Positions 22,376 through 36,096 of a stretch of 64,000 bases of DNA are shown here, piece by piece. Numbering within the stretch: the stretch's first letter is position 1; every line of letters starts with the position of its first letter. The position numbers and the translations under genes are program-made. Under the pieces are notes generated by a model that searched no databases, was not told the origin of the DNA, and worked only from the letters and a program-made list of their open reading frames with translations. Origin of the DNA: a virus; the IMG/VR virus record IMGVR_UViG_3300042478_002320, positions 14,884 to 78,883 of that record, one strand, 5' to 3'.

Positions 22376-22438
22376 CGCAAAAAACATAAGATGGAGTTTC
22401 CTTGCCTTGTAAAAGGTGGGTTTTAAAAATCTAAAGAC

Positions 22439-22511: not shown

Positions 22512-22532
22512 CTAAACTAAAAACCAAAAATA

Positions 22533-22769: not shown

Positions 22770-22786
22770 AAGTAATTATATTGTAT

Positions 22787-22914: not shown

Positions 22915-22959
22915 TATAGTAATCAAAATCAAAATAAATGAACAAAAAAACATTAAATC

Positions 22960-23301
22960 ATGAAAAATGAATTCATTCCATACGAACAAGCGTTGGAACT
23001 AAAAGAACTTGGATTTGATGAACCCTGTTTTGGTAAATTTTACTATAGTCATTTAGAAATTGGAGGAAATTGGCGTAATGATGATTTTAAAGAAGACCCT
23101 GATATTTTTATTTCGGCACCACTATACCAACAAGTTTTTCGTTGGTTTAGAGAGAAGTATGGTGTTTATTTTCACCCACAAAAATTCGATGAAAGTAGAT
23201 GGTGGATTCAATGGGGTTATTGGAATAGTTCTGTTTTCGAAACCTATGAAGAGGCTGAACTTGAATGTGTTAACAAATTAATAGAAATAGCGAAACTATG
23301 A
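22960..23301 (+). CDS. phage protein of the 'ALELKELGFDEPC' family
   Basis: FIPYEQALELKELGFDEPC..APLYQQVFRWFREKY..TYEEAELEC. Confidence 0.75.
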   Translation: MKNEFIPYEQALELKELGFDEPCFGKFYYSHLEIGGNWRNDDFKEDPDIFISAPLYQQVFRWFREKYGVYFHPQKFDESRWWIQWGYWNSSVFETYEEAELECVNKLIEIAKL

Positions 23302-23509
23302 ACATAGAAATAAGTTGGAATCATTTAGGAGGCAGTTGGTGGTTTGAATTAGGCATAGGTTGTCAGACAACAGAATATCATCCCAATAAGAAAATGGTAT
23401 TTACGATATCTTTAGGTATTGCTACTATTTATGTTAGATGGTAAAATCACAACATATTTGAATAACGGTGATAATCACTGTAGAATACTAAAATTTCAGA
23501 CAAAAAACA

Positions 23510-23566
23510 TTAACATAACATTAACAAAATTAAAATTGACTATTTATAAAAAATAGATCATCTTTG
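23510..23566 (+). promoter_or_regulatory. TTAACA repeat operator plus Bacteroidetes-type promoter driving the DUF6745 operon
   Basis: TTAACA at 23510 and 23521; TTG at 23536; CATCTTTG at 23559. Confidence 0.6.
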
Positions 23567-23601
23567 CAGAGTCAAATTTTTTGAGTTACAAATCAACAAA
23601 C

Positions 23602-24555
23602 ATGAGTAAAATTGAAAAACTAACTCCTGAACAGGAGTCCAAATTAGAGTCTCACAGAGATAAGTGGTTGAGCAAGGTATTTAATTACGAATACTATAAT
23701 AACCATGATGCTGCTAAAACAGAAGTTTCTATTAAGAAACTTTACAAATTCTGCGGGTTGTCAGAACCTGAAGTAATGCTTTTAGACAGCCCGATGGCTT
23801 GTCAAGTAAAAGTCAATGAGTTATTAGGAAATGAAACTATGGTTTACGAACCGTTCTCATCCTACATCAACGTTGATGACATTTCTTGGCTATCCTTTTA
23901 CAGCTTTTTTATGGACAATTTTGATATCTTAGATGAGTTCAAAAAAGATTTCAACTTAATATCAGAATGTGTTGAGAACAGTTACCTTCAAATCCAAATG
24001 GATACTGTATGTTTAGTGTCTAAATATCCAAAGATAATAAACAGAAATGCCAACAAAGATTTACATTGTACAACAGGATACGCAATTGAGTTTGCAGATG
24101 GATATGGACAACACTATGTAAACGGAAGATTTATTGAAGAGTCTGTATTCAATGAATGTATGACCTTAGAGAATGCTACGATTTTATTTCATACTCAGAC
24201 TAATGAAGACATCAAAGCAGGAATTATTACAATAATCAAAGAGAATTTCGGTAACGAAGGTTTACTCAAGATGTTAGATGCTACTTTAGTTGATGAGAAG
24301 ACTATTAAGCATGAAAATGACTACGAGGAGATTGTTAGAATTTATAAGAGTAATAAATCTTATTCATTCTTACAGAATAGTAAAGGAGAGATGGATCAGC
24401 CATATGCATGGATTGAATTCACTTGTCCGAGTACTAAATCTACTTATCTTATTGACACCTGCCCAACTTTTTCGGATGCAGTAGAATGTGCCAAATGGCA
24501 TAGACCAAACAATGTACCAAGTAGCCTTAGTTATATTTGGAGTTCAGCAAATTAA
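23602..24555 (+). CDS. DUF6745-like protein lacking the internal QVW repeat region
   Basis: KLTPEQE...RDKW, LY..CGL..P..LDSP, SWLSFYSFF, LHC..GYAIEFADGY...NG, N.D/E motif, CPST..YL...P...AVE..W; ATG at 23602 preferred to the track's TTG. Confidence 0.75.
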   Translation: MSKIEKLTPEQESKLESHRDKWLSKVFNYEYYNNHDAAKTEVSIKKLYKFCGLSEPEVMLLDSPMACQVKVNELLGNETMVYEPFSSYINVDDISWLSFYSFFMDNFDILDEFKKDFNLISECVENSYLQIQMDTVCLVSKYPKIINRNANKDLHCTTGYAIEFADGYGQHYVNGRFIEESVFNECMTLENATILFHTQTNEDIKAGIITIIKENFGNEGLLKMLDATLVDEKTIKHENDYEEIVRIYKSNKSYSFLQNSKGEMDQPYAWIEFTCPSTKSTYLIDTCPTFSDAVECAKWHRPNNVPSSLSYIWSSAN

Positions 24556-24569
24556 AATTAAAAAAAATT

Positions 24570-24959
24570 ATGAAAAGTAAGTTAAATTTCGACAAGAAGT
24601 CCTTTCACCAAGGAGATGTTCAATTTTTCCAATTGAATAAACTACCGAAAGGCATTAAGAAGATTGAGAAGCAATTTATTGCTGCATCGGAAAGATCAGG
24701 AAGCTTTCATGCCCTATTCGGAAATTATGACATCTACGAATTTGAGGATGGAGGATTCGTAATCGATGCTCACGAAGAATGCATCTTGAATCATTCATTA
24801 CAATCAGAGCTAAGGGGTTTAGGCGTTAGTTTAGACAAAGCTATGATTACAGCTAAAAAAGACCATAGGCACACTGTTGTCCCTCCGGGTAAATACTTCG
24901 TTGGTATTCAAACAAGGTTTGATCCTTTAGAGAATGCAAAGAAGAATGTAACTGACTAA
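24570..24959 (+). CDS. conserved 'QGDV...H' phage protein, usual neighbour of DUF6745 genes
   Basis: HQGDV, ASERSGSFH, DHRHTVVPPGKY.V..Q.RFDP...VTD. Confidence 0.75.
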   Translation: MKSKLNFDKKSFHQGDVQFFQLNKLPKGIKKIEKQFIAASERSGSFHALFGNYDIYEFEDGGFVIDAHEECILNHSLQSELRGLGVSLDKAMITAKKDHRHTVVPPGKYFVGIQTRFDPLENAKKNVTD

Positions 24960-24986
24960 ATTTTAATTTGTTTGTTGTAAGTGTAA

Positions 24987-25018
24987 GGGGCATATATTGT
25001 ATTAACATATATGCTCCT
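24987..25018 (+). terminator. hairpin between the DUF6745 pair and the small-ORF array (attenuator or processing site)
   Basis: GGGGCATATAT/ATATATGCTCC stem without a strong U-tract. Confidence 0.4.
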
Positions 25019-25038
25019 TCACATAAAAGCACATAGTT

Positions 25039-25257
25039 ATGGAAAATATAAATGATATTCTATTATCGCATATTCATAAAGTTAGAGATAAGCTATATGT
25101 TATAATAGGCACTCCTCAATCAGATGGAAATTATTTTAATGATACCATTGAAACAGATTTAGATATAAATTCTGATAATTTTGATACTATGAGTAATCAA
25201 TTATGGGGAGATGTTGGTGATAATCTTAGGAGGTCTTTTCTCAAAAATACTAAATAG
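25039..25257 (+). CDS. array small ORF (divergent QVW-family)
   Basis: MENI...NQLWGDV. Confidence 0.6.
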   Translation: MENINDILLSHIHKVRDKLYVIIGTPQSDGNYFNDTIETDLDINSDNFDTMSNQLWGDVGDNLRRSFLKNTK

Positions 25258-25259
25258 TT

Positions 25260-25460
25260 ATGAAAAATTTGCGAGAGGACATTCACGAAATCTTAGTCTA
25301 CACCATTTTAAAAGAAATGTGGGAAGAATCTAATACTAAAATAGTATTCTTTAAGATAGTAGAAGTTGAATATCATATCAAAGATAAAGTATCAGATCAA
25401 TTATATCATAATATAGCTCTAAACCTAAGTGATGAAATCGATAAAAGATATAATCTTTAA
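25260..25460 (+). CDS. array small ORF
   Basis: MKNL...KVSDQL. Confidence 0.65.
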   Translation: MKNLREDIHEILVYTILKEMWEESNTKIVFFKIVEVEYHIKDKVSDQLYHNIALNLSDEIDKRYNL

Positions 25461-25680
25461 AAAATTAAGGAGTGGTATTATAGAGAATATTGATAATTCA
25501 TTGAATACAGATATTCTATCAGGAAGTGTAAAAGTTATCGTAATCATTACACTAATGCATAAAATTAAGGATGAGATGTGGATACACTATAGTATAGAAA
25601 TCCAAATTAATTCAGCATTAAATCGTGTTTTATATCCTCAAGGAAATCTTTTTAATCAATATCTACGAAAACCTGTATGA
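25429..25680 (+). CDS. array small ORF
   Basis: MKSI start; coupled to the next ORF via ATGA. Confidence 0.6.
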   Translation: MMKSIKDIIFKKLRSGIIENIDNSLNTDILSGSVKVIVIITLMHKIKDEMWIHYSIEIQINSALNRVLYPQGNLFNQYLRKPV

Positions 25681-25862
25681 ATAAAATAGAAGACTACAGT
25701 GATATTATATGTAAAAAATTTACTAATCCTATGAATGAGGCTTTAGTTAGTAGAGTATCAATTAAAGCTCAATCTTTAATTAGTTTCTATACATCTAAAC
25801 CTACTATGAATCAGATTTGGAGTCAACTGTTTTTTACGGTTAAGCAGAATGTAAAACTATGA
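25677..25862 (+). CDS. array small ORF
   Basis: NQIWSQL...VKQNVKL end. Confidence 0.7.
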   Translation: MNKIEDYSDIICKKFTNPMNEALVSRVSIKAQSLISFYTSKPTMNQIWSQLFFTVKQNVKL

Positions 25863-25866
25863 AAAT

Positions 25867-26094
25867 ATGAAAAACATAAGTAGTAGAATTAGAATTAGAT
25901 GTTATGAATCACTTCATAGTCTTATAAAAAAAATTGATAATAATGTAAAATCAAAAGCAAAAGACAAAGTGACTGATGATGTAGAGGTAGAAATTAACTC
26001 TCAGATATGGGAAAAATTGCTTGATGGATCTTTTCATGGAATAGCTAATGATTCCTATACTTTAAATCACAAAGTAAAAATTGACAATGACTAA
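25867..26094 (+). CDS. array small ORF
   Basis: MKNI...SQIWEK. Confidence 0.65.
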   Translation: MKNISSRIRIRCYESLHSLIKKIDNNVKSKAKDKVTDDVEVEINSQIWEKLLDGSFHGIANDSYTLNHKVKIDND

Positions 26095-26281
26095 AATTAT
26101 AAACGTTTCAAGTAAACTAAGTGAATTTACAAATAAAGTAATTCGAGACAAAGGAACAATACCTATCCGAAACAATGTTGCTTTACGTACATATGATAGA
26201 ACCTTAGTATATATGTGGGGTTATGTAAATTTCAATATGTCTGTAAGAAATAATATTAGGTGGTTTATAAACAAAGAATGA
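26087..26281 (+). CDS. array small ORF
   Basis: MTKIINV...MWGYV. Confidence 0.6.
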   Translation: MTKIINVSSKLSEFTNKVIRDKGTIPIRNNVALRTYDRTLVYMWGYVNFNMSVRNNIRWFINKE

Positions 26282-26285
26282 AGTT

Positions 26286-26489
26286 ATGAAAAATATAGGC
26301 GCACAATTAGCAAGTCACATAGATAGCAAAACTTATTCTTCACTTATTCATAATAAATTGAAGAATCATTCGAGTTCTATAATATGGGTACATATTTGGA
26401 ATGCTATAAGGAGTCCTATAGATAATGAAATATCATTAAGGATATGTGCAGAAATATTTCATAGAATACGAAAAGATATAGATTTATGA
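26286..26489 (+). CDS. array small ORF
   Basis: MKNI...IWVHIWN. Confidence 0.65.
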   Translation: MKNIGAQLASHIDSKTYSSLIHNKLKNHSSSIIWVHIWNAIRSPIDNEISLRICAEIFHRIRKDIDL

Positions 26490-26650
26490 TAAATATAGAG
26501 CATATCCTATGGGATAAAATACTTGAACATTTCTCAGATAACATACTTAATCAAGTACATTCTGAAGTTCAGACTTATATACAGAATGAGATAGGAAATC
26601 CATTGTGGACTCAAATAGATGATAGAATAGGAATAATTATGAAGTCATGA
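26486..26650 (+). CDS. array small ORF (54 aa, not in ORF track)
   Basis: MINIEHILWDKIL...NQVHSEV...LWTQI; ATGA overlaps at both ends. Confidence 0.7.
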   Translation: MINIEHILWDKILEHFSDNILNQVHSEVQTYIQNEIGNPLWTQIDDRIGIIMKS

Positions 26651-26847
26651 AAAGCGTAAGTAACAAGATATTAGATAGATTGTCTGAGATTGAACTAACT
26701 ACATTTTGGAATAAATCAGTTGAAATGACAAATTCTAAGGTATGGCATCAAGTGAGGATGAACCTAAAATCTCCTGTACAAAATGAACTAAATATTCAGC
26801 TATGGACTCAAATAGAACGTGCAGTAAAGAGAAAAGTTAGTTTATGA
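26647..26847 (+). CDS. array small ORF
   Basis: KVWHQV...QLWTQI. Confidence 0.7.
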   Translation: MKSVSNKILDRLSEIELTTFWNKSVEMTNSKVWHQVRMNLKSPVQNELNIQLWTQIERAVKRKVSL

Positions 26848-27029
26848 AAAATATTAGAGGTTATTTACGGATTCGTATATGGTATAAGAGGAACAACTTT
26901 AGTTCCATAGCACAAATTAAAGTCTTGAATACAGAAGAGAATGTAATAGGTCGTATTCTATGGGATCCTATAGTAGATCAAGTAGAGAGCCGGGTAAGTA
27001 GTCCATTAGAAATAAATATGAAATTATGA
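26844..27029 (+). CDS. array small ORF
   Basis: LWDPIVDQV...INMKL. Confidence 0.7.
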   Translation: MKNIRGYLRIRIWYKRNNFSSIAQIKVLNTEENVIGRILWDPIVDQVESRVSSPLEINMKL

Positions 27030-27032
27030 GTT

Positions 27033-27257
27033 ATGAATAGTGTAGATACTACAGTAATGCGTATAGTAAAAAATCAACTATTGTATAAGATACTTGATGC
27101 AGTAAAATATCGAGTAGATTATCAAGTAAAGAATGATGTAAAAGATGAGACAGTTAATAAAATATGGGATCAGATAGATAGTACATTATATTTTGAAGTA
27201 AAGGAACAATTAGGAAAACAAGTATACTTACATAATTCTGTAAAACAAAATATATAG
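27033..27257 (+). CDS. array small ORF
   Basis: KIWDQI...VKQNI. Confidence 0.7.
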   Translation: MNSVDTTVMRIVKNQLLYKILDAVKYRVDYQVKNDVKDETVNKIWDQIDSTLYFEVKEQLGKQVYLHNSVKQNI

Positions 27258-27259
27258 TT

Positions 27260-27445
27260 ATGAAAAATATTGAAAATGAGTTAGTAAAATTTGATCGTGA
27301 TACAATGTGGTTTATATTATATGGTAATTTACATTTTCGTATAATTAATCAAGTAACTAATCAAATTTTACATCCTATAGGAAATACTCAAAGACATATG
27401 TCTCCTGTCACAGATGTTATTAAAATGAAAATATCGTTTAAATAG
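27260..27445 (+). CDS. array small ORF
   Basis: MKNI...NQVTNQI. Confidence 0.65.
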   Translation: MKNIENELVKFDRDTMWFILYGNLHFRIINQVTNQILHPIGNTQRHMSPVTDVIKMKISFK

Positions 27446-27480
27446 CCGATACGTAACAGAACTCAAACAATCATTAAATT

Positions 27481-27690
27481 ATGAAAACTACTAACTTAAT
27501 AAATATCGATACATTGATGAGTAACCATATAATAGATAACTATAGTATGCTATTATATAAAAAATTAAAGGTATCTATGGATATGAGTTTCAAAAATCTC
27601 GATAAACTATGGAGACTCGAAGAGGAAATTGGCGCACAGCTCATAGTTCAGATACGGGATAGAGTTGTTGTAAATTTAAAAATAAAATAA
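27481..27690 (+). CDS. array small ORF
   Basis: KLW...QIRDRV..NLKI. Confidence 0.65.
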   Translation: MKTTNLINIDTLMSNHIIDNYSMLLYKKLKVSMDMSFKNLDKLWRLEEEIGAQLIVQIRDRVVVNLKIK

Positions 27691-27692
27691 AG

Positions 27693-27923
27693 ATGAATAA
27701 TGTAAGAGCTATAATACGAGATAAGATACCTCAAAAATTTAATTTAGAAACTATAACATCTAAATTTAGCACATCGGTAACTTCTACTGTAGAAGATTTT
27801 ACAATTATTCCAATATTTGGAAAATTAACTTTTAGAGTAAGTGTTACAGTAAAGACTGTATTACTCGATACTGTGGGTGGGAAAATAGTTGGGGAGCTGC
27901 TCCCAAAATTTTTTAAAGCATAA
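27693..27923 (+). CDS. array small ORF (divergent)
   Basis: MNNV start; V/I periodicity. Confidence 0.6.
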   Translation: MNNVRAIIRDKIPQKFNLETITSKFSTSVTSTVEDFTIIPIFGKLTFRVSVTVKTVLLDTVGGKIVGELLPKFFKA

Positions 27924-27935
27924 AAAACTAAAACT

Positions 27936-28133
27936 ATGCATAACGTAAAAGAAACTTTTAAGTCTAAAACAAAATTCTTCTACGAAAGGTTAAGTAAAAC
28001 TCTAAGACATAAAGCATCTGTTATTACGAGATTAACTGTAAAAATAAAATTTATTGATCTCATTTCTTCACCTGTATCTAAATTAAGTTCTGATACTGCT
28101 TTAAACTTAGAAAAAACTAATATAAAAGAATAG
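27936..28133 (+). CDS. array small ORF (divergent)
   Basis: MHNV...TNIKE. Confidence 0.6.
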   Translation: MHNVKETFKSKTKFFYERLSKTLRHKASVITRLTVKIKFIDLISSPVSKLSSDTALNLEKTNIKE

Positions 28134-28137
28134 TAAT

Positions 28138-28854
28138 ATGAATTCAGATATTATTAAAATACTTCTATCTGAAGAAGAGATTAAGTATATACTATCAAAA
28201 TCTATGTGTAGTATAAATATATCTCAATATAATCCTCTGAGATATAGAAAACCTATAACTCAATTAGATAGTTTATTTAGAGGATACTTAGGAGAATATG
28301 CTTTTTTTAAATATATGCTTGAAAAGGATATTACATTCTCTAAGATTAACTATAAAAAAGATGGAGAAAAGATAGATATGGACTTGTGTTACAAAGGTCT
28401 TAATGTCGAAATAAAAACATCTATGATTCCTGATATAGATGACTGTATGTATAAAACTATTAATACAAGAGACATAAAACTTATTAGAAGAGAGAATAGC
28501 AGTATCGAAGATTTGCAAGGAGATATTCATATACAGATATTATTTAATACAAAAAGACATGAACATGATGAATGGATTTTGAGTAAAGATTTCAATATAT
28601 CAAATCATGATGTAAACTCTTTGTATAAATTTCTAAACGCTGAAATGTATAGAGATTGCATAAATTTTGTGGGTTGGGTAGATAAGAAAACTTTAGTTCA
28701 GCATATAAACAAACTACCTGAAGAGGATAGATGTTGGTCATTCAGGAATTCAAAACATTCTATTTTTGAAAACTCAAAAAGATATTTTTGGAATTTTAAA
28801 ATAAAGGATTCCCATAAACCCTCTCTAATCATACCCTATTTAAAAAGTTTGTAA
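28138..28854 (+). CDS. PD-(D/E)xK restriction-endonuclease-like protein
   Basis: GYLGEYAF helix, DMDL, VEIKT catalytic motif, FVGWV. Confidence 0.6.
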   Translation: MNSDIIKILLSEEEIKYILSKSMCSINISQYNPLRYRKPITQLDSLFRGYLGEYAFFKYMLEKDITFSKINYKKDGEKIDMDLCYKGLNVEIKTSMIPDIDDCMYKTINTRDIKLIRRENSSIEDLQGDIHIQILFNTKRHEHDEWILSKDFNISNHDVNSLYKFLNAEMYRDCINFVGWVDKKTLVQHINKLPEEDRCWSFRNSKHSIFENSKRYFWNFKIKDSHKPSLIIPYLKSL

Positions 28855-28857
28855 ACA

Positions 28858-28913
28858 TTAACATAATTTTAACAAACACCTATTGATTTGCAAGAGAAGT
28901 ATTATTATCTTTG
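28858..28913 (+). promoter_or_regulatory. TTAACA repeat operator plus Bacteroidetes promoter (mid-array)
   Basis: TTAACA at 28858 and 28869; TTG at 28883; TATCTTTG at 28906. Confidence 0.7.
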
Positions 28914-28950
28914 CGATGTTAATTATTCTAAACCACATAATCACATTGCC

Positions 28951-29418
28951 ATGATTAATATCCTATCTTCAGTTTACAATCTTACTAAGACCAATAATGG
29001 TATGTTCAAATCTGAGAAACAAGCTAATTTCTTGATTTCTCAATTTAAAGCATATGATGACTTTGTAGGCTTCTCTCCAAACGGAAAACCTATATTCGTA
29101 GAATACGATGATAAGGGTATTATAAAGATGTACAAAGATTTAGCATCAAACAAAACTGATATTGTATTTGAAAGAGTCGTTGAAGGATCTCTCAACTCTG
29201 TTGAGTTGAAGACTCTTAAATGGTATAAAAGTAAGGTTAAGAAAATTCAAAAGAATTTAGATGAATCTATTGCATTCGCAGAAAAAAAAGGATTATCTAA
29301 CTATTCTGAATTTGAATTGGAGGTATATCACAGAAGTAGAGAAAGTGATAGAACTCGTATAGCCGAGCTTATGGAGTTAATCGATGGTTTAGAAAGTAAA
29401 ACAAACAAATTATTATGA
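28951..29418 (+). CDS. hypothetical protein
   Basis: ATG at 28951 lies downstream of the promoter; the track's start overlaps the promoter. Confidence 0.65.
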   Translation: MINILSSVYNLTKTNNGMFKSEKQANFLISQFKAYDDFVGFSPNGKPIFVEYDDKGIIKMYKDLASNKTDIVFERVVEGSLNSVELKTLKWYKSKVKKIQKNLDESIAFAEKKGLSNYSEFELEVYHRSRESDRTRIAELMELIDGLESKTNKLL

Positions 29419-29576
29419 TAAAGTATAAGATTGTAGATTGGATGAGTAATCATCTGTTCATTGATAAAGTATTTGACTCCTTTGAGGAGGGGTGGGATTT
29501 CCTGTATGAGCAGTTTCCTGATGAGGATAATTTTGATGACTATTATGTGGTACCTATTGAAAATGACGTATTATGA
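29415..29576 (+). CDS. small acidic protein (53 aa, not in ORF track)
   Basis: MIKYKIVDWMSNHLF..FDSFEEGWDFLYE; ATGA-coupled at both ends. Confidence 0.6.
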   Translation: MIKYKIVDWMSNHLFIDKVFDSFEEGWDFLYEQFPDEDNFDDYYVVPIENDVL

Positions 29577-29818
29577 AGGAAGTAGTAAATAATATAGTAA
29601 GTAGTCAAGTGGGTGAAGAAGTGTGGGATCAATTATATTACCAAGTAATCTTTCAGGTAGATGTTAAAGTATGGAATACAGTGAAGAGTCAAGTAGATAA
29701 TCAAATACTTAATTTAGTAAATCCTCAAATAGGGAGGCAAGTACGCATTCGGTTACAGGATAAACTAATGGAGCAATTAGCGAATCAAGTAGAAAATAAT
29801 TTAGAACAAAATATGTAG
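29573..29818 (+). CDS. array small ORF (QVW repeat)
   Basis: EVWDQL..QV..QV..KVWN. Confidence 0.75.
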   Translation: MKEVVNNIVSSQVGEEVWDQLYYQVIFQVDVKVWNTVKSQVDNQILNLVNPQIGRQVRIRLQDKLMEQLANQVENNLEQNM

Positions 29819-29821
29819 TCT

Positions 29822-30028
29822 ATGAATAACATAGGAAGTGACACAGGAAAGATAGTATGCGAACAAGTAGATACCGCAGTAAGATTTAAAATTCGTAATG
29901 GCATAGTTAATAGCCCTGTTTTCTATAAACTATGTGGTCTACTAAGTAGTAAACTGAGTATCGAATTATGGAATCAAACAACAAGTAGAGTAGTGAGTCA
30001 ATTAAGGATTTCAGTAAGAAACTTATAA
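29822..30028 (+). CDS. array small ORF
   Basis: ELWNQ...VRNL. Confidence 0.7.
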   Translation: MNNIGSDTGKIVCEQVDTAVRFKIRNGIVNSPVFYKLCGLLSSKLSIELWNQTTSRVVSQLRISVRNL

Positions 30029-30032
30029 ATTT

Positions 30033-30221
30033 ATGAAGAATATAGATAAGATGGTAGGAGATGTATTATACGATCAAGTTAGAGATGAGCTGAGAGTAAA
30101 CCAAAATAGTAAAGTAGATGTTAGGTTAAGTTTTCATCTGAGTGATAAACTATGGAATGCTACAAGAGGTCAGGTAATTTTGCAATTAAACAATATGCTT
30201 AAACGGAACTTAAAATTATGA
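30033..30221 (+). CDS. array small ORF
   Basis: DQVRD..KLWN..RNLKL. Confidence 0.7.
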   Translation: MKNIDKMVGDVLYDQVRDELRVNQNSKVDVRLSFHLSDKLWNATRGQVILQLNNMLKRNLKL

Positions 30222-30412
30222 GTAATGTAAATATGCATCAAGTAAAAGATAAAATATGGATTGAAATACATTATACATTACGTAATCAACTACGGAGAGA
30301 TGTAATGAATGTAGTTAAAAGTCATACTATATGGATTTATATATTGCATCAAGTACAGGATATAGTATGGGATCAAGTAAGAGATCGTATAGGACAAAAC
30401 TTTAAATTATAA
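30218..30412 (+). CDS. array small ORF
   Basis: IVWDQVRDRIGQNFKL. Confidence 0.75.
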   Translation: MSNVNMHQVKDKIWIEIHYTLRNQLRRDVMNVVKSHTIWIYILHQVQDIVWDQVRDRIGQNFKL

Positions 30413-30420
30413 AGAATATT

Positions 30421-30618
30421 ATGGTTGACCTGAGTAAGAAAATAAATGATGCAGTAAATCATATACCTAATAAATCTTATGATATATTATTTTTTAAAAT
30501 GAAAGAAGAAGTATTAGTAAATACATGGAATATACTAAGAGTTCAAACAAGAGATCAATTACGAATTAAAATGAGACTTCGGATAACTTTTGAAGTATTT
30601 AAAAACATAAAAGTATGA
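30421..30618 (+). CDS. array small ORF
   Basis: NTWN..RDQL..KNIKV. Confidence 0.65.
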   Translation: MVDLSKKINDAVNHIPNKSYDILFFKMKEEVLVNTWNILRVQTRDQLRIKMRLRITFEVFKNIKV

Positions 30619-30785
30619 GAAATATAACTGAAAGAATAAATTACAGACTAAAATATTTGGGAGATGGATTTCTTATGGATTTATGGGAATTAATATCCAA
30701 TAGATCATCAGATGACGTAAGGTTTAAGGTAAGAACTAAAGTATGTAATGTATACATAGATCAAGTAAAAAAGAATATGAAATGA
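30615..30785 (+). CDS. array small ORF (56 aa, not in ORF track)
   Basis: MRNITER...DLWE...DQVKKNMK; ATGA-coupled. Confidence 0.65.
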   Translation: MRNITERINYRLKYLGDGFLMDLWELISNRSSDDVRFKVRTKVCNVYIDQVKKNMK

Positions 30786-30919
30786 AAGGAGTTACTATTC
30801 ATATATGGAGTAGAGTATTAGATTTACGTAATAATTTACGAAAACCTATAGAAGATGAATTAAATGATCAGCTAAGTGCTCAGGTAGGAGTTCAACTTAG
30901 AAATTCCATAGTAGAATGA
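30782..30919 (+). CDS. array small ORF (45 aa, not in ORF track)
   Basis: MKGVTIHIWSRV...DQLSAQVGVQL; ATGA-coupled. Confidence 0.65.
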   Translation: MKGVTIHIWSRVLDLRNNLRKPIEDELNDQLSAQVGVQLRNSIVE

Positions 30920-31104
30920 AGAATTTGAATATAAAAATTGATGTTAAAGTTTGGGATCGAGTATATAGTGAAATAGAAAATGAAACAAACTATAAAGTAT
31001 CAGGTCAAGTATGCAAACAAGTAGGTGACCAAATAACTTTTCCAATACTAAATCAAGTACGGTTTCAAGTACGGAATCAAGTATCACAAAACGTAGAATT
31101 ATGA
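30916..31104 (+). CDS. array small ORF
   Basis: KVWDRV...QVRNQVSQNVEL. Confidence 0.75.
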   Translation: MKNLNIKIDVKVWDRVYSEIENETNYKVSGQVCKQVGDQITFPILNQVRFQVRNQVSQNVEL

Positions 31105-31289
31105 AAAGAGTACAAAGTATTATGAATACTGAAACTATAAGTAAATTTTGGATTATTATAGAGCTTTCAGTATGTGAACAAGCAAGTAACGAAGTAAAGG
31201 TCAGAACGAGTGGTGAATTAATTGATCCTATAAATAATGAATTAGGCACTCAATTGTGGAGTCAAATAAAACAAAACGTAAAGTTATGA
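31101..31289 (+). CDS. array small ORF
   Basis: QLWSQIKQNVKL. Confidence 0.75.
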   Translation: MKRVQSIMNTETISKFWIIIELSVCEQASNEVKVRTSGELIDPINNELGTQLWSQIKQNVKL

Positions 31290-31477
31290 AGAGTGTAAGA
31301 AATGTAGTAAGTAGTAGAATAAGAATCAAAGTAAAAGGTAAGATATGGAGTACTATAGGCATTCAAGCAAGGGACTTAGTAGAAGCTAAAATAGGAAGTA
31401 GTGTAAGAGGACAAATATTTGATTCATTGTATATTGATGTGCAAGAAAACATAGACTATGAATATACTAAAAAATAG
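31286..31477 (+). CDS. array small ORF
   Basis: MKSVRNVV...KIWST; start at the junction motif. Confidence 0.7.
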   Translation: MKSVRNVVSSRIRIKVKGKIWSTIGIQARDLVEAKIGSSVRGQIFDSLYIDVQENIDYEYTKK

Positions 31478-31646
31478 AGTAAATACTCAAGTATGTATTC
31501 AGGTAGGGGATAACTGTAAGACACAGGCATCTCAAAAATTATGGGATCAAGTAAGTAGTCGAGTATGGGGTTGTGTAAAAAGAGAAGTGTGGGGTTGTGT
31601 AAGTAGAGAAGTACGAATGCAGGTAAAACAAAACATAAAGTTATGA
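31458..31646 (+). CDS. array small ORF
   Basis: LWDQV..RVWGCV..VKQNIKL. Confidence 0.75.
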   Translation: MNILKNRVNTQVCIQVGDNCKTQASQKLWDQVSSRVWGCVKREVWGCVSREVRMQVKQNIKL

Positions 31647-31867
31647 AGAGCGTAAGTGAAGAAGTAAGCACTAAAGTGAATGATCAGATAACTGATGTAG
31701 TAAGCATTAAAGTAAGAAATAATCTATGGGGTCAAGAGGTGATTCATGTAGGTTTTGAAATACGCAATGAAGTATGGCATCAAGTTGGAAATAAAATACA
31801 CAGTCAAGTACGCATTCAGGTATGTAATAGAGTAATGGTTCAATTACAACAAAACATAAAGTTATGA
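31643..31867 (+). CDS. array small ORF
   Basis: EVWHQV...QQNIKL. Confidence 0.75.
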   Translation: MKSVSEEVSTKVNDQITDVVSIKVRNNLWGQEVIHVGFEIRNEVWHQVGNKIHSQVRIQVCNRVMVQLQQNIKL

Positions 31868-32088
31868 ATAATATAGAAAAAAAAGTATGGGATCAAGTAA
31901 GTAATCAAGTAAGGAATCAGGTAAGTAATCAAGTAAGTGAGCAAACAACTATTTCAATATGGAATGAAATAAATAATCAAGTAAGTGGTCAAATATGGAA
32001 TCAAGTAAATAATCAAGTAAGTGAAAAAGTGATAGATCAACTATGGAATGAATTTTTAAATAGATTTAAACAAAACATAAAGTTATGA
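31864..32088 (+). CDS. array small ORF (strong QV repeat)
   Basis: KVWDQVSNQVRNQVSNQV...KQNIKL. Confidence 0.8.
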   Translation: MNNIEKKVWDQVSNQVRNQVSNQVSEQTTISIWNEINNQVSGQIWNQVNNQVSEKVIDQLWNEFLNRFKQNIKL

Positions 32089-32279
32089 ATAATGTTAGTT
32101 ATAAGGTTGGACAGAAACAAGGACATGAAGTACTCAGTGGAGTAGGTGGAAAAATTTGGGAAGCTGATAAAGTATCAAAATCAGTAGTAGTTAAACTATA
32201 TGTTCAAATAAATCAACAATTAGTAACTGAGATGGGAGAGAAATTTGTGAGGCAACTATTACGAAACCTAAAGTTATGA
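32085..32279 (+). CDS. array small ORF
   Basis: KIWE...RNLKL. Confidence 0.7.
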   Translation: MNNVSYKVGQKQGHEVLSGVGGKIWEADKVSKSVVVKLYVQINQQLVTEMGEKFVRQLLRNLKL

Positions 32280-32443
32280 AGAGTGTAAAAGGTGGGGTAG
32301 AAGATAAAATACAAAAACAATTACTATACCTAATGCAAGACAGAATAGGAAATCAAGCATGGAGTCAAACGAGGCAGCATCTAAGTATTCAGGTGACGAT
32401 GCAATTGAGATGGAATCGAGTAGAACAAAACATAAAGTTATGA
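32276..32443 (+). CDS. array small ORF (55 aa, not in ORF track)
   Basis: MKSVKGGV...NQAWSQTRQHL...VEQNIKL. Confidence 0.7.
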   Translation: MKSVKGGVEDKIQKQLLYLMQDRIGNQAWSQTRQHLSIQVTMQLRWNRVEQNIKL

Positions 32444-32721
32444 AGAATATACAGAAACAAGTATCATTTCCATGTGATCAAGTATGGGTTAATTTAAGAG
32501 TTCGCATTCGAAGTACGTCAGGGAATGGAATAGAAAGAAAAGTGAGTGATGTAGTAAGTCATCAAGTGGTTAATTTAGTGACTAATAGAATGGTAGATCA
32601 TGTACGGTATCATGTACGGGATCATGTACGGTATCATGTACGGTATCATGTACGGGATTATGTACGGGATCATGTACGGGATTATGTACGGGATCATGTA
32701 GCACAAAATACTAATTTATGA
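32440..32721 (+). CDS. array small ORF with (D/Y)HVR repeats
   Basis: start at the junction motif (32440), not the track's 32359. Confidence 0.75.
   Translation: MKNIQKQVSFPCDQVWVNLRVRIRSTSGNGIERKVSDVVSHQVVNLVTNRMVDHVRYHVRDHVRYHVRYHVRDYVRDHVRDYVRDHVAQNTNL
32596..32700 (+). repeat. 12-nt tandem repeat (g/t)at(c/t)atgtacgg, about 8.75 copies
   Basis: directly visible. Confidence 0.9.
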
Positions 32722-32909
32722 AGAGTGTGAGGAGTCATATATGTAATCAAGTGGCTGATAAACTATGTAGTCAAACAAGTACTCAAGTAAGGTTTCATGT
32801 ATCTAAAAAATTATGGGATCAAACAAGACAGTATTTAAGTACTCAAGTGAGAATGCAAGTACGGGTTTACATACGTATGGAAATACCTATGCAGATAAAA
32901 AAAATATAA
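32718..32909 (+). CDS. array small ORF
   Basis: KLWDQTRQYL..QVRMQV. Confidence 0.75.
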   Translation: MKSVRSHICNQVADKLCSQTSTQVRFHVSKKLWDQTRQYLSTQVRMQVRVYIRMEIPMQIKKI

Positions 32910-32913
32910 AGTT

Positions 32914-33090
32914 ATGAAGAATGTTAGGTACGAAGTATGGAGTAGATTATGGGGTAAAGTGGTAAGTCGCTTATGGAGTGAAAAAAATGGTATGGTGTAT
33001 AATCAAGTATGGAATCAAGTTGGAGAGAGTATACATGAACAATTATCAAATCAAATTTCGGAACGAGTATCACAAAACATAAAGTTATGA
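32914..33090 (+). CDS. array small ORF (58 aa, not in ORF track)
   Basis: MKNVRYEVWSRLWG...NQVWNQV...VSQNIKL. Confidence 0.75.
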   Translation: MKNVRYEVWSRLWGKVVSRLWSEKNGMVYNQVWNQVGESIHEQLSNQISERVSQNIKL

Positions 33091-33305
33091 AGGATATGAG
33101 AAGTAAAGTAAGGGAGCAGATAGGAATTAGAATAGTGGATATAGTAGAAGTTAAAGTGTGGAATCAAGTATGGAGTACTATAGGCAATCAAGTATGGAAC
33201 CAAGTAGTGAGGCAAGTACTGACTCAAGCAAGAAATCAATTGAAACCTCAAGTAATTAACGATGTAAAACAAAATGTAAAATTATCAAAATTAAATTCAC
33301 TTTAA
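33087..33305 (+). CDS. array small ORF
   Basis: KVWNQVWST.GNQVWNQV...KQNVKL. Confidence 0.75.
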   Translation: MKDMRSKVREQIGIRIVDIVEVKVWNQVWSTIGNQVWNQVVRQVLTQARNQLKPQVINDVKQNVKLSKLNSL

Positions 33306-33471
33306 TGTATTTTGTAAAACCATAGTTATGAAAGACCTGTACCCTTGAGAAACTCGTATTAGATATCATAAGTTAGGTATTGAGATAAGCAGGTCATCTC
33401 CGATATAAAAGGGTATTAGAATAAGGAGATATTTTATAATAAAGTAATTAAAAAAATTTTGGGAGCAGAAC

Positions 33472-33502
33472 TTGACATTTCCAACATAACTCAGTATATT
33501 TG
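33472..33502 (+). promoter_or_regulatory. Bacteroidetes sigma-A promoter
   Basis: TTG-N20-TATATTTG. Confidence 0.7.
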
Positions 33503-33519
33503 CAAAAACAAAAAAACAT

Positions 33520-34017
33520 ATGTCAAACATACCCACCTCCCCACAATCCTTAATCAGGTCATTACCTGATTCTCTAAAAGAATTACTGTTTAAGCAATGG
33601 AATGCTAAACAGAATCCAACATGGCATCCTGAAGGAAATACCTTAAAGCATATCATTGTAGTTTTGAAGAGAGCATACCACAAGTATACAGATGATCCTA
33701 ATATGATTATGGCAGCATTGTTCCATGACTTAGGTAAGATGGATACTTATGCTATAAATCCTAAAACAGGACAACCTACTGCATATGGACATGAGCATAA
33801 GTCAGCTGATTATGTTATTCAGTATCAAGATTGGATTTTAGCTTATGATGGAACTGACATAGAAACTATACACTTTATAGTTAAGAATCATATGTTGGTG
33901 AAATATCCTAATGCAATAATTGAATCTATGAGACTATCTAAGCGTATACCTATAGAGAATCATAAATCATTTGATAAACTAATATTCTTTTCTACGATTG
34001 ATAAGGGTGGTATATAA
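33520..34017 (+). CDS. HD-domain phosphohydrolase (resembles the HD domain of CCA-adding enzymes)
   Basis: QNPTWHPEGNTLKH, ALFHDLGK, GHE..SA, KNHM. Confidence 0.85.
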   Translation: MSNIPTSPQSLIRSLPDSLKELLFKQWNAKQNPTWHPEGNTLKHIIVVLKRAYHKYTDDPNMIMAALFHDLGKMDTYAINPKTGQPTAYGHEHKSADYVIQYQDWILAYDGTDIETIHFIVKNHMLVKYPNAIIESMRLSKRIPIENHKSFDKLIFFSTIDKGGI

Positions 34018-34042
34018 GTGTTAAAAACTAAAACATAAAGTT

Positions 34043-34195
34043 ATGAAGAATGTAGGCAAACAAGTATGGAAGCAATTAAGTAATCAAGTAAGGAATCAGG
34101 TAAGTAATCAAGTATGGAGTCAAGTGAGGAATCAAGTATGGGATCGAGTATGGGAGCAAGTAGAGAATCAAGTAAAACAAAATATAAAGTTATGA
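34043..34195 (+). CDS. array small ORF, near-pure QV repeat (50 aa, not in ORF track)
   Basis: MKNVGKQVWKQLSNQVRNQVSNQVWSQVRNQVWDRVWEQVENQVKQNIKL. Confidence 0.8.
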   Translation: MKNVGKQVWKQLSNQVRNQVSNQVWSQVRNQVWDRVWEQVENQVKQNIKL

Positions 34196-34392
34196 AGGAT
34201 GTAAGTGAAAAAATAAGTGATAAAATAGGTGGTAAAATAAGTAGTAAAGTATGGAAAGATGTATGGAACCAAGTATCGAAGGAAGTACAGAGTCAAGTAA
34301 AAGATAAAGTACGTATTCTATTAGGGGAGCAAGTAGAGAATCAAGTATGGGATCAAATAAGTACTATAGTAAGTAATAATGTAATGTTATGA
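34192..34392 (+). CDS. array small ORF
   Basis: MKDVSEK...KVWKDVWNQV; start at the junction motif. Confidence 0.75.
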   Translation: MKDVSEKISDKIGGKISSKVWKDVWNQVSKEVQSQVKDKVRILLGEQVENQVWDQISTIVSNNVML

Positions 34393-34631
34393 AAAATGTA
34401 AAAGGACAAGTATGGAATCAATTAACTGATCAAGTATATAATCAAGTACAGAATCAAGTATGGAACCAAGTAGTGAGGCAAGTATGGTATCAAGTAGAAA
34501 TTCAAGTATGGGATCAAGTAAGTAATCAAGTAGATGATCAAGTAAGTGATCAAGTAGAGATTCAAGTAGATGATCAAGTATGGGCACAAATAAGTGATGA
34601 AGTACGTAACCAACTAAAACAAACATATTAA
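34389..34631 (+). CDS. array small ORF, near-pure QV repeat
   Basis: QVWNQLTDQVYNQVQNQVWNQV... Confidence 0.8.
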   Translation: MKNVKGQVWNQLTDQVYNQVQNQVWNQVVRQVWYQVEIQVWDQVSNQVDDQVSDQVEIQVDDQVWAQISDEVRNQLKQTY

Positions 34632-34632
34632 T

Positions 34633-34905
34633 ATGAAATCACTAAATAACCAAGTACGTGACCAACTATTAAATCAAATACGTGGTCAATTAAATAAACA
34701 TGTATTTGATAACGTAATTGTTCATCTACATCTTCAAATAAGTAATAAATTATGGGCACAAATAAGTGATGAGGTAAATGTTCAATTAAAACGTAATATT
34801 ACTGACCAATTACGTGTTAATTTACATGAACAAATATGGAATCGAGTAAGTGGTCAAGTGATTAATCAAGTATATAATCAAGTAAAACAAAACATAAAGT
34901 TATGA
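34633..34905 (+). CDS. array small ORF
   Basis: KLWAQISDEV...QVKQNIKL. Confidence 0.75.
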   Translation: MKSLNNQVRDQLLNQIRGQLNKHVFDNVIVHLHLQISNKLWAQISDEVNVQLKRNITDQLRVNLHEQIWNRVSGQVINQVYNQVKQNIKL

Positions 34906-35123
34906 AAAACGAAAACACCGATATAAGGTCTATTGTACGCAATGACATCATAGATTGTTTATGGGAAACTTTAGGAGAACGAATGGATGCAGATGATTCA
35001 GACAAAGCTTCCTTAACTATAGTTAACAATGAACGTATGCGTATGAGGTTTGATCAATTGAAAAATTCTATTAGTTTTCAAATTAACCTTAAAATATCTG
35101 AAAGCAAATCAAAAATTCAGTAA
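34902..35123 (+). CDS. array small ORF (divergent)
   Basis: coupled via the junction motif; CLWE. Confidence 0.6.
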   Translation: MKNENTDIRSIVRNDIIDCLWETLGERMDADDSDKASLTIVNNERMRMRFDQLKNSISFQINLKISESKSKIQ

Positions 35124-35141
35124 ACAACAAAACATAAAGTT

Positions 35142-35405
35142 ATGAAAAATCAAAATCAGGTAGGATCCATTTACCTAAACGGTACAGTAGACGTAGCTGT
35201 AGACATTGACAACAGTTATATCAAAATTCATATTGTAAACAATAAAACTAAAGAACTTATTGAAGGCTGCCACTTTCACTATAGTTCAGATAAGCTGAAT
35301 AGGGATCTAAAAAACGATATAAGGAAATACCTTATCGACACAACTTCGAGTAATAGCTATGCTGATACTATTATACATAATATAGTAAATCAGCTTAAAA
35401 AATAA
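35142..35405 (+). CDS. hypothetical protein
   Basis: 87 aa; non-repeat but preceded by the array junction motif. Confidence 0.65.
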   Translation: MKNQNQVGSIYLNGTVDVAVDIDNSYIKIHIVNNKTKELIEGCHFHYSSDKLNRDLKNDIRKYLIDTTSSNSYADTIIHNIVNQLKK

Positions 35406-35427
35406 TTATATCATCGGTTTTCTTAGG

Positions 35428-35456
35428 GTGGGGGAGTCAGCTTCCCCACTTTTTTT
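35428..35456 (+). terminator. intrinsic terminator ending the + strand array
   Basis: GTGGGGGAG-TCAG-CTTCCCCAC followed by a T-tract, at a convergent junction. Confidence 0.8.
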
Positions 35457-35522
35457 ATTTATTATTTGAGTATTCCGTATAAATCAACAAGTTTTATTTT
35501 TATCCCTATACACAAATATAAA

Positions 35523-36065
35523 TTAATATGGGTCATATTTAATTTCTTCAATAGTTATAGAATCATCATTAAATAATATATAATCATTTACACTACTTTT
35601 TAACCCATCTATACCATTATTAAATAAAAATGAAGATGCTTTTTTATCACTACCTAAAATTCTTGATAAAGTTTTATAAAATATAAAACCCGTATAAGAA
35701 AATTCAACAACTTCATCAGATTTTTTATTATAGTCATTAAGTGCTTCTACAATTTTATTAACTATATATTCTTCAACAGGTTCCTTTAGATCTAATAAAA
35801 AGTATTCTTTTTTATTATTAAAAAGTTTTACTTTATATATGTAATCACCATACTGTTTATTTGGTATATTTTCTGAAAAATAAAGTCCATATCCATATCT
35901 TTGCCTATTACCATCAGCACTAATATTTGATATATTAAACTTATTAAACATTTTTGGACTTCTATGATAAGCTATTATTTCTTCCGTAAATTGATTGGTT
36001 TTCTCATTCAAATATTCTCGGATTGTTTCATTTGTAATTGTTTCAAGAATGGTTTTGAGTTTCAT
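35523..36065 (-). CDS. ADP-ribosyltransferase-like protein (ART-PolyVal-like)
   Basis: AYHRS..FNKF...YGYGLYFSE, YG.YIYKV, GIDG...YILF. Confidence 0.6.
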   Translation of the reverse strand: MKLKTILETITNETIREYLNEKTNQFTEEIIAYHRSPKMFNKFNISNISADGNRQRYGYGLYFSENIPNKQYGDYIYKVKLFNNKKEYFLLDLKEPVEEYIVNKIVEALNDYNKKSDEVVEFSYTGFIFYKTLSRILGSDKKASSFLFNNGIDGLKSSVNDYILFNDDSITIEEIKYDPY

Positions 36066-36096
36066 ATAGAGGTATATATACTTTAATAATCTAAAA

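Follow-up and report, generated by a model that had tools for sequence, protein, structure and literature searches.

Background

Orphan toxin and immunity cassettes lie downstream of cdiA and rhs; they have no starts of their own and are recombined in via a shared region of homology. Simple-sequence contingency loci are repeat tracts within genes that vary by slippage. Closest to the locus described here are phage proteins of the DUF6745 family (PF20530; phrog_31813) that carry an internal tract of four-residue repeats, or tetrads (P0019–P0026, for example). No member of this family has an assigned function or a solved structure, and we found no paper that mentions the DUF6745 core or its partner protein. 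Cultured but distant examples are gene 38 of the Mycobacterium prophage prophiGD102-1 and hypothetical proteins of the Microcystis phages Ma-LMM01 and MaMV-DC.

Our window, a stretch of 64,000 nucleotides from the IMG/VR virus record IMGVR_UViG_3300042478_002320, holds a DUF6745 core that has no tract and, downstream of it, about 36–40 small, back-to-back and diversified mini-genes. We read these as a split, library-type form of a hypervariable module and put the odds that it acts in trans on the core at roughly 50%. The features of the locus are as follows.

23602–24555, plus strand: repeat-less core ('scaffold') of the DUF6745 family, 317 aa, assigned by homology to PF20530 carriers
24570–24959, plus strand: conserved, all-beta 'HQGD' partner, 129 aa, following the core gene
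24985–25019, plus strand: stable hairpin without a U-tail, between the partner gene and the first mini-gene
25039–28133, plus strand: array block 1, 15 mini-genes of 54–82 aa, the copies being the most degenerate of the three blocks
28138–29576, plus strand: three interrupting genes (238, 176 and 53 aa), unrelated to the mini-genes
29573–33305, plus strand: array block 2, 19 mini-genes of 45–93 aa, many with ATGA coupling
33520–34017, plus strand: HD-domain gene, 165 aa, between blocks 2 and 3
34043–35123, plus strand: array block 3, 5 mini-genes of 50–90 aa with the most canonical QVxx copies
35142–35405, plus strand: last small ORF, 87 aa, a doubtful member, preceded by the junction motif at 35136
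35425–35452, plus strand: intrinsic terminator, a 12-pair stem then a U-tract, closing the co-oriented unit

The DUF6745 core and its partner

The initial annotation called the gene at 23602–24555 DUF6745-like. Searched directly, it scores only 18.9 bits against PF20530 (E 9.8e-4, residues 132–232), short of the gathering cut-off of 27 bits, and matches phrog_31813 at E 1.8e-5. The assignment nevertheless holds through full-length homology to proteins that do carry PF20530: P0002, P0003, P0004, P0007 and P0008 are 73–79% identical to the core (E 1e-159 to 1e-174), and the distant homologs P0092–P0099 carry the domain likewise. The Pfam model is a poor fit to this phage subfamily. We found 99 homologs, with which the core aligns at the motifs DSP, WLSFY, LH, DGY and NG. 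The interval from DSP to WLSFY, described at first as about 30 residues free of repeat, is 31 aa long and has no tract.

The partner's homologs number 448, with identity of at least 62% among the 120 listed. Residues H13, Q14, G15, D16, E41, H47, H75, D98, H99 and H101 are invariant, and the His/Asp/Glu cluster is a candidate metal site. A QGDV/His-rich protein had been named as the usual companion of DUF6745. The partner gene lies 20–42 nt downstream of DUF6745 in loci L002–L013 and L017, and QGD-type ORFs come after distant cores as well, whether these are fused (tract-bearing) or bare (tract-less). In P0092, the partner is fused to a DUF6745 (hhalign 90.7%, E 1.2e-6). This fusion, along with adjacency in fused and bare loci, links the two proteins and suggests that the partner works with the core. 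AlphaFold2 models have a pLDDT of 92 for the core, with no PDB neighbor, and 79 for the partner, with a best structural Z of 3.5; neither protein resembles a solved fold or named family.

An array of mini-genes

Downstream of the partner, 40 co-oriented plus-strand ATG ORFs of 45–93 aa occupy 25039–35405, where about 39 in three blocks had been claimed; our count is 15, 19 and 5, plus the doubtful last one. Of the region, 95.7% lies within ORFs of this kind (plus-strand, ATG, 45 aa or longer). The figure is 8.9% on the minus strand and averages 3.8% in 100 shuffles of the same sequence (maximum 10.8%). The genome is 29% G+C, and open frames take up 96% of these 10.4 kb. Each unit starts at an ATG and ends at a stop codon of its own. 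At 20 of the 39 junctions, neighboring units overlap by the 4 nt ATGA. Three of the mini-ORFs are concealed within longer, upstream-extended frames of the ORF list. At the head of the array, 24960–25038 folds at −23.5 kcal/mol (z −4.3), which none of 200 shuffles equaled. At its foot, the terminator folds at −17.8 kcal/mol (z −3.5), and the genes past it are on the minus strand.

The array encodes a family. A profile built from 18 members recruits 17 more array ORFs at E ≤ 0.005 (35 of 40 in total), and the first non-array ORF appears in the ranking at E 0.025. Outside its recruitment are the ORFs at 25039, 26087 and 27936 in block 1, of which it recruits 11 of 15 at the same threshold, and the ORF at 35142–35405 (E 1.5; lag-4 z 2.5). 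The four-residue Q-V periodicity noted at the outset is real: lag-4 hydrophobic periodicity exceeds z = 2 in 33 of the 40 mini-ORFs, most of block 1 among them, compared with 1 of 55 control small ORFs. So are the shared ends, with the start motif M-[KN]-[NS]-[VI] present in strict form in 20 ORFs and in looser form in 28, and a C-terminal QN[IV]KL in nine. At the DNA level, the junction sequence AAAGTTATGAA occurs 12 times, in blocks 2 and 3 only, and 12-bp tandem repeats lie within block 2, inside 31864–32088 and 32440–32721 (8.8 copies, 91% matches).

The mini-genes evolve faster than the core. Their pooled dN/dS among close relatives is 0.47, which is below 1 yet 12 times the core's 0.04. 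In relatives whose core synonymous sites are saturated, the frames, start motif and periodicity persist and the protein termini are conserved, with middles about 30% identical. No copy is more than 60% identical to the reference copy. There are no near-identical pairs, and the array is therefore not a recent expansion. One mini-gene, 34192–34392, differs from a copy in L005 by 0.07 at synonymous sites, compared with 0.84 for the respective cores; to judge from these values, single mini-genes look to have passed from phage to phage without the core. We regard the mini-genes as real, translationally coupled genes that are presumably translated.

Two interruptions break the array. The trio at 28138–29576 matched no Pfam, PHROG, NCBIfam or PADLOC family and has no homolog among the related loci L002–L097; it is probably a lineage-specific insertion. 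The product of 33520–34017 reaches 19.8 bits against Pfam HD (under the cut-off), E 1.9e-8 against phrog_6931 and 24.6 bits against the NCBIfam HDIG domain. Its ortholog in L002 and L004 (77% identity) sits outside the array, so the HD gene is no fixed array part.

Kinship with the DUF6745 tract

The initial annotation stated that DUF6745 proteins typically carry an internal QVxx repeat. By matches to the mini-gene profile, 28 of the 99 core homologs do and the remainder do not. Every tract inserts at a single site, profile position 80, and the matches fall between DSP and WLSFY wherever both motifs can be located. The mini-gene profile does match this internal repeat, and in a direction-specific way: QV-type tracts score 146–199 bits forward and 9–16 bits reversed. 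Non-QV tracts (P0036, P0089 and P0090) score about the same in both directions, so they have only periodicity in common with the mini-genes. The likeness between mini-gene and tract is a low-complexity similarity, though direction-specific. Among 1.84 billion protein representatives, the profile hits 1685 at E ≤ 1e-3, and 141 of its 149 best hits are DUF6745-positive. The tract is hypervariable: cores that are 97–100% identical differ by 12–100 tract residues.

Where do free mini-genes occur? At viral loci seeded with the scaffold, they accompany 11 of 11 bare cores and none of five fused ones. Whole-contig searches found no stand-alone copies in the fused complete genomes G011, G012, G014 and G015, and 71, 8, 12, 21 and 24 in the bare genomes G016–G020, respectively. 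The 10 fused metagenome loci have none, and on array-bearing contigs where a core was found, it is always bare. Raw locus counts are 24 bare with an array, one bare without and 10 fused without; for motif-seeded loci, the way in which they were found partly presupposes the link between bare core and array. Of the fused/bare contrasts that are informative on arrays, only three to four are phylogenetically independent (p 0.25 in a sign test). Across the core tree, the fused and bare states have switched at least 10–15 times, and bare-core arrays occur in at least three core lineages from large uncultured phages. The expected synteny of bare DUF6745 with arrays appears at 24 loci and fails in the lineage L140/L141, where the partner adjoins a bare core and no mini-genes lie within 8–10 kb on either side. 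There are also distant bare DUF6745 proteins (P0095, P0096 and P0099, for example), so a core probably does not need a tract to function.

The initial annotation had the repeat externalised and working in trans. Externalisation into separate genes is well supported by the match of profile to tract, the 141 of 149 DUF6745 hits, the fixed insertion site and the mutually exclusive states of whole genomes. Action in trans is a further step, inferred from the distribution and one complex model that passes its controls.

How the mini-proteins may act

That model pairs the core with the 50-aa product of 34043–34195. ESMFold2 gives the complex a score of 0.66 (runs of 0.81, 0.66 and 0.47), compared with a best of 0.00 for three controls; of 80 solved complexes, 58 attain the 0.66 mark, as do 2 of 110 mismatched pairs. 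The modeled interface takes in core residues 3–27, 64–68 and 80–120 and mini-protein residues 1–6 and 31–50, so that the conserved mini-protein termini fall within it. Mini-protein pLDDT is at least 71 across runs. Contact agreement between runs is at least 17% and, because they share as few contacts as that, the register and orientation of the modeled helix are unsettled. The model covers one of the 40 mini-proteins, and long amphipathic helices dock easily. Binding of mini-protein to core is accordingly put forward as a prediction of the modeling.

We picture the system as follows. The mini-genes would descend from the hypervariable tetrad tract found inside other phages' DUF6745, between the DSP and WLSFY helices, and their products would be small amphipathic helical proteins with V, I or L at every fourth residue. 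In the window's lineage, the core would have lost its tract, the job of which would be taken over in trans. The hydrophobic stripe and conserved ends of a mini-protein (MK[NS]V at the start, KQNIKL at the end) could fit a groove of the core at helices 9–27 and 91–106, leaving the variable face exposed, and the core would act together with its HQGD partner. The phage would thus make some 36–40 versions of one complex simultaneously; tract-bearing relatives would have a single version per genome, varied by 12-bp slippage. Our guess is that the variable face recognizes a variable target in the host or a rival, in an arms race. A fuller picture, which we offer tentatively, is of a repertoire system: core and partner, possibly a metal-dependent enzyme, would load any of dozens of interchangeable hypervariable helical adaptors (40 in the window, 71 in one relative). 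A single phage would thereby keep a ready stock of surfaces for recognizing variable host or rival-phage targets, a genome-encoded counterpart of slippage variation.

Arrays do not keep a constant place relative to the core. They are upstream in L002, L004 and L005 and downstream in the window, and some are far away. These placements, the bare core of L140/L141 with no array nearby and the exchange of 34192–34392 apart from its core would suit mini-proteins that derive from the tract and act independently. Such free helices might serve as decoys or inhibitors, or bind targets in the host or a rival phage, and the core would be their evolutionary source and neighbor only. We consider this rather unlikely, though a serious rival. 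It leaves unexplained the lack of free copies in complete genomes with a tract-bearing core and the consistently bare cores of array-bearing contigs, and it sits badly with a complex model that passes its controls and places the conserved termini in the interface.

Groove binding as modeled fits equally well with mini-proteins that antagonize or regulate DUF6745, filling the tract groove to titrate or switch the core of their own phage, or as a poison for the tract-bearing DUF6745 of rival phages and prophages. With so many diverged copies, many rivals could be targeted, and the family does occur in prophages such as prophiGD102-1. The groove of a tract-bearing protein would already be occupied in cis, however, and we think this role improbable.

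The array might instead store silent cassettes for recombination into the core gene, in the manner of antigenic variation or of CDI/Rhs orphan modules, given that many units have a conserved DNA junction at their flank and some have moved from one phage to another. It is very improbable when no unit lacks an ATG or a stop and half are coupled by ATGA, when the core gene has no junction-like sequence (best match 18/31, background 16–21), when the core's 25 nearest homologs on the tree all lack a tract and when the contig carries no reverse transcriptase. Decaying or selfish tandem DNA without function would account for a dN/dS so far above the core's, a degenerate block 1 and four ORFs that escape the profile, and has hardly any claim on us beside the tiling of open frames at 29% G+C, the upkeep of frames, start motif and periodicity in relatives with synonymously saturated cores, and the lack of near-identical copies.

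Significance

If the mini-proteins load onto the core, they would represent a new viral route to protein diversification, in which the variable module leaves its gene and is kept as a library of subunits, each with a gene of its own. Diversity-generating retroelements and slippage, by contrast, mutate one gene, and CDI/Rhs systems and shufflons swap cassettes. Among large uncultured phages the system is widespread; it occupies 10–15 kb of genome and numbers 8–71 copies per genome in those bare-core contigs that were searched in full. Its arrays give a testable handle on DUF6745 and its partner, and some 40 natural, short, helical, putative binders of one groove should be of interest to protein engineers.

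Comparison with known systems

Diversity-generating retroelements share with this locus the diversification of a protein surface by a phage-encoded system. They differ in that the window has no template/variable repeat pair and its variation is among gene copies rather than in one targeted region. We rejected such an element: no PF00078 reverse transcriptase is present on the 78.9-kb contig, which is 42% complete. CDI/Rhs orphan arrays also set alternative variable modules beside a conserved main gene. Here, the units are complete, coupled genes and the core shares no junction sequence with them, and a cassette array of the CDI/Rhs type was rejected on those grounds (ATG and stop in all units, 20 of them ATGA-coupled).

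Contingency loci come nearer. The fused relatives behave like them, with near-identical cores and variable tracts, and 12-bp tandem repeats persist in some of the window's mini-genes; the difference is that the window keeps many fixed variants in parallel per genome and does no single-gene switching. Nearest of all are the tract-bearing DUF6745 proteins themselves. They have the same core (50–58% identity to P0019–P0024), the same partner gene and the same repeat chemistry, Q-V-x-D/N with period 4, and their tract sits at the site where the modeled mini-protein docks in the window. What sets the window apart is a core without the tract and, in its place, some 36–40 separate, diverged genes.

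Layout of the array

The unit opens with the gene for the core, a 317-aa protein of the DUF6745 (PF20530) family, followed by that for its partner, a 129-aa HQGD protein, and then runs through a long array of mini-genes before closing at a canonical terminator.

Features of the unit (window positions)
23602-24555 (+): core gene, first in the unit
24570-24959 (+): partner gene, second in the unit
3' of the partner gene: hairpin with a stable fold (z -4.3)
25039-28133 (+): array block 1, 15 mini-ORFs
28138-29576: three unrelated genes, between blocks 1 and 2
29573-33305 (+): array block 2, 19 mini-ORFs
33520-34017: HD-domain gene, between blocks 2 and 3
34043-35123 (+): array block 3, 5 mini-ORFs
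35142-35405 (+): doubtful last ORF after block 3, missed by the mini-ORF profile
35425-35452: canonical terminator, closing the whole unit

The initial annotation had described a three-block array of about 39 small co-oriented ORFs, and this was borne out: there are 40 ATG-initiated plus-strand ORFs of 45-93 aa between 25039 and 35405 (15, 19 and 5, plus the doubtful one). Counting ORFs of 45 aa or more, 95.7% of this interval is covered on the plus strand, against 8.9% on the minus strand and a mean of 3.8% (maximum 10.8%) in 100 shuffled sequences. Stop and start codons overlap by 4 nt (ATGA) at 20 of the 39 mini-ORF junctions. The long minus-strand ORFs (34387-34626, 30944-31249 and 33051-33272), with their LLD, YLI and similar repeats, were rejected as genes; they are by-products of the repeats, arising opposite the periodic mini-gene codons.

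The three genes that split the array at 28138-29576 may be a mobile insertion. They match no family and have no homolog in the related loci; a D...E-x-K-like motif can be picked out by eye in the first of them. Sigma-70-type promoter matches are rarer in the region than in shuffles, the best (11/12) lying at 33472-33500, in the gap of 214 nt upstream of the HD-domain gene, where a TAnnTTTG motif at 33495 overlaps it.

The mini-ORFs form a family. A profile built from 18 of them recruits 17 more at E <= 0.005, the best ORF from elsewhere in the window reaching E 0.025; those at 25039, 26087, 27936 and 35142 are not recruited. Significant four-residue hydrophobic periodicity (z > 2) is seen in 33 of the 40, against one of 55 control small ORFs. 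The shared periodicity of the initial annotation thus stands, as does the common start (in the looser form M-K/N-x-V/I, in 28); the QN(I/V)KL end is found in 9. At the DNA level, the junction AAAGTTATGAA occurs 12 times, in blocks 2 and 3 only, and 12-bp tandem repeats persist within several mini-genes (for example, 8.8 copies with 91% matches at 32596-32700).

The core gene and its tract site

That the upstream gene is DUF6745-like holds by way of its relatives: the core itself scores 18.9 bits against the Pfam model, under the 27-bit cut-off, but many of its 99 homologs, at 73-79% identity, carry PF20530. A 97%-identical relative (P0001) is among the homologs. In homologs of 354-550 aa a run of Q-V-x-D/N tetrads, the tract, lies between a DSP-x-A-C-Q helix and a WLSFY helix, and when 123 cores were aligned to one profile it fell at profile position 80 in every case. 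The window core has 31 repeat-free residues at this site, much as first described. The accompanying statement, that DUF6745 proteins typically carry the internal repeat, is right for about 30% of the family.

Where present, the tract is hypervariable: cores of 97-100% identity have tracts differing by 12-100 residues. Four such pairs (P0019/P0020, P0023/P0024, P0088/P0089 and P0044/P0045) differ in tract length by 40-100 residues; in the first, cores of 99.1% identity carry tracts of 130 and 30 residues. These differences come from metagenome assemblies, which can collapse repeats, so they reflect either contingency-like slippage or assembly collapse.

The structure model of the core (pLDDT 92) is helical towards the N-terminus and beta towards the C-terminus. 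Against the PDB, Foldseek returned nothing below E 0.08 and VIA-align no usable neighbour, its best match (Z 5.3) being limited to 72 residues in the beta part; the ESM Atlas had nothing for the core. Profile searches of PDB sequences gave nothing under E 0.17, and PADLOC and NCBIfam chance-level matches only. Residues H155, Y168 and E202 of the core may form an H-Y-E-like pattern. In the literature searched, no paper naming 'DUF6745' or 'PF20530' was found, and a broader word search likewise brought up nothing relevant.

Mini-genes as probable copies of the tract

Most likely the mini-genes represent the DUF6745 tract in detached form, multiplied in number and diversified in sequence. As the initial annotation had predicted, a profile of the array ORFs matches the internal repeat: it hits 28 of the 99 core homologs, between DSP and WLSFY wherever both motifs can be located. 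On QV-type tracts it scores 146-199 bits forward against 9-16 bits reversed, and therefore it is the sequence that is matched, not the period alone; on tracts of other tetrads it scores alike in both directions. In a search of 1.84 billion representative proteins it gave 1685 matches at E <= 1e-3, and 141 of the best 149 of these are DUF6745-positive.

Distribution of tract and arrays

If tract and array are alternatives, arrays should accompany bare cores, those lacking the tract. A sample of viral loci found by the core is blind to arrays. In this sample, mini-genes number 10-37 within 10 kb of each of eight bare orthologs (L002-L009) and 1-7 at three loci belonging to a second bare subfamily (L014-L016); the five fused loci, in which the core bears the tract, have none. 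Loci found by the repeat motif, a sample biased towards arrays beside bare cores, comprise fourteen fused cores with 0-1 mini-genes and seventeen arrays with a bare core (281-369 aa) as neighbour. Another ten motif-found arrays have no core in the stretch compared; in five, a core of 293-305 aa lies elsewhere on the contig, and the other five are fragments (12-46% completeness). Scans of whole contigs found no stand-alone copy in four complete fused-core genomes and 71, 8, 12, 21 and 24 copies on bare-core contigs. The largest array of the comparison, 71 matches over about 15.6 kb, accompanies a 76%-identical bare core on the L003 contig (G016:C1:123264-138888).

There is one clear exception to this adjacency. 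In a bare lineage from the metagenome sample (L140:10001-11372 and L141:8143-9514; core 78% identical), the partner is adjacent and the 8-10 kb flanking it on each side hold no mini-gene. In a 114-core tree built with the tract columns omitted, the fused or bare state changes at least 15 times, 10 changes being forced by well-supported branches, and the window core falls in a 25-row all-bare clade adjoining a fused one. Of the phylogenetically independent contrasts, only 3-4 are informative about arrays; all agree in direction, but with a sign-test p of 0.25.

Partner and modelled complex

The partner is modelled as all-beta (pLDDT 79), and its conservation is far above that of the core. Foldseek and VIA-align found no usable PDB neighbour (best Z 3.5), and the ESM Atlas gave unnamed viral clusters only. 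Its invariant residues (H13, Q14, G15, D16, E41, H47, H75, D98, H99 and H101) are, on sequence grounds, a possible metal site. QGD-type ORFs follow fused and bare cores alike in distant lineages, and in P0092, a tract-bearing DUF6745 protein, a partner-like domain is fused at the C-terminal end (hhalign 90.7%, E 1.2e-6).

The scaffold-and-peptide complex proposed initially found a counterpart in modelling, which supports predicted binding of the core to the 50-aa product of 34043-34195. The pair scored 0.66 (runs 0.81, 0.66 and 0.47), against 0.00 for the best of three controls; of 80 solved complexes 58 attain that score, as do 2 of 110 mismatched pairs. Contact agreement between runs was low (at least 17%), mini-protein pLDDT was at least 71, and one copy was modelled, with the register unsettled. 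The modelled interface takes in core residues 3-27, 64-68 and 80-120, including W96-Y100 adjoining the tract site, and, on the mini-protein, residues 1-6 and 31-50 and one face of the stretch between; it therefore includes the conserved termini.

Evolution of the mini-genes

Between L004 and L005, pooled dN/dS is 0.47 over 13 orthologous mini-genes against 0.04 for the core. Relatives with 73-79%-identical cores offer best matches to the window mini-genes that are mostly 25-45% identical, the termini being conserved across the clade. Two units depart from this: 34192-34392 and 31286-31477 are 88% and 79% identical to L005 copies (the two lie at L005:6617-6781 and L005:6939-7136), with synonymous differences of 0.07 and 0.32 against a saturated 0.84 for the cores, which suggests, from the sequences compared, that single mini-genes are exchanged between phages. 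Within the window no two mini-genes form a close pair, and since the highest identity to a reference copy is 60%, the array is an old, diversified one rather than the product of recent expansion. It lies downstream of the core here and upstream in L002, L004 and L005. Analysis of nearest paralog against position was uninformative, the most repeat-rich copies drawing all others.

Genomic setting

The window, bases 14884-78883 of a 78.9-kb IMG/VR virus contig (42% complete by CheckV), has a G+C of about 29% and carries phage genes for a GP88-like protein, an endolysin-like protein, RNA ligase, thymidylate synthase and several C5 DNA methyltransferases. Three successive, overlapping genes at 47518-51028, in a co-oriented run (neighbours 45984-51840), encode C5 cytosine methyltransferases of 418, 356 and 396 aa (Pfam E 1e-42 to 1e-47). 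Neither megablast of the region nor tblastn of core and partner matched anything in 50,697 GenBank phage records, and the relatives compared are metagenomic throughout.

An Rfam scan of 21000-36500 found tRNA-like matches directly upstream of the unit and nothing within it. They lie at 21136-21259 (32.8 bits), 22439-22511 (40.9 bits) and also about 22790-22915. The first holds an insert, since it spans 124 nt against a 71-position model; of the first two, ARAGORN recovers the second alone, its anticodon not nameable. A weak YrlA-like match overlaps 22343-22466.

Readings and known systems

We put at about 0.5 the probability that the mini-proteins act in trans on the bare core. A bare core able to take up any of many mini-proteins would yield many versions of one core-partner complex simultaneously. 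Ways of varying the tract have arisen repeatedly (slippage in the fused forms, libraries here), which suggests, as a guess, a recognition surface in an arms race.

A distinctly weaker candidate is that the mini-proteins act independently of the core, and it is rather unlikely that they are antagonists or regulators. We think it very improbable that the array is a store of silent cassettes for recombination; recombination into the core was dropped because the core gene contains no junction-like sequence. Equally improbable is that the array is junk DNA. A DGR was dropped because no reverse transcriptase is present on the contig (42% complete).

The defining features of CDI/Rhs orphan cassettes and of DGRs were looked for and are lacking. 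The closest known entity is the tract-bearing DUF6745 protein, itself uncharacterised.
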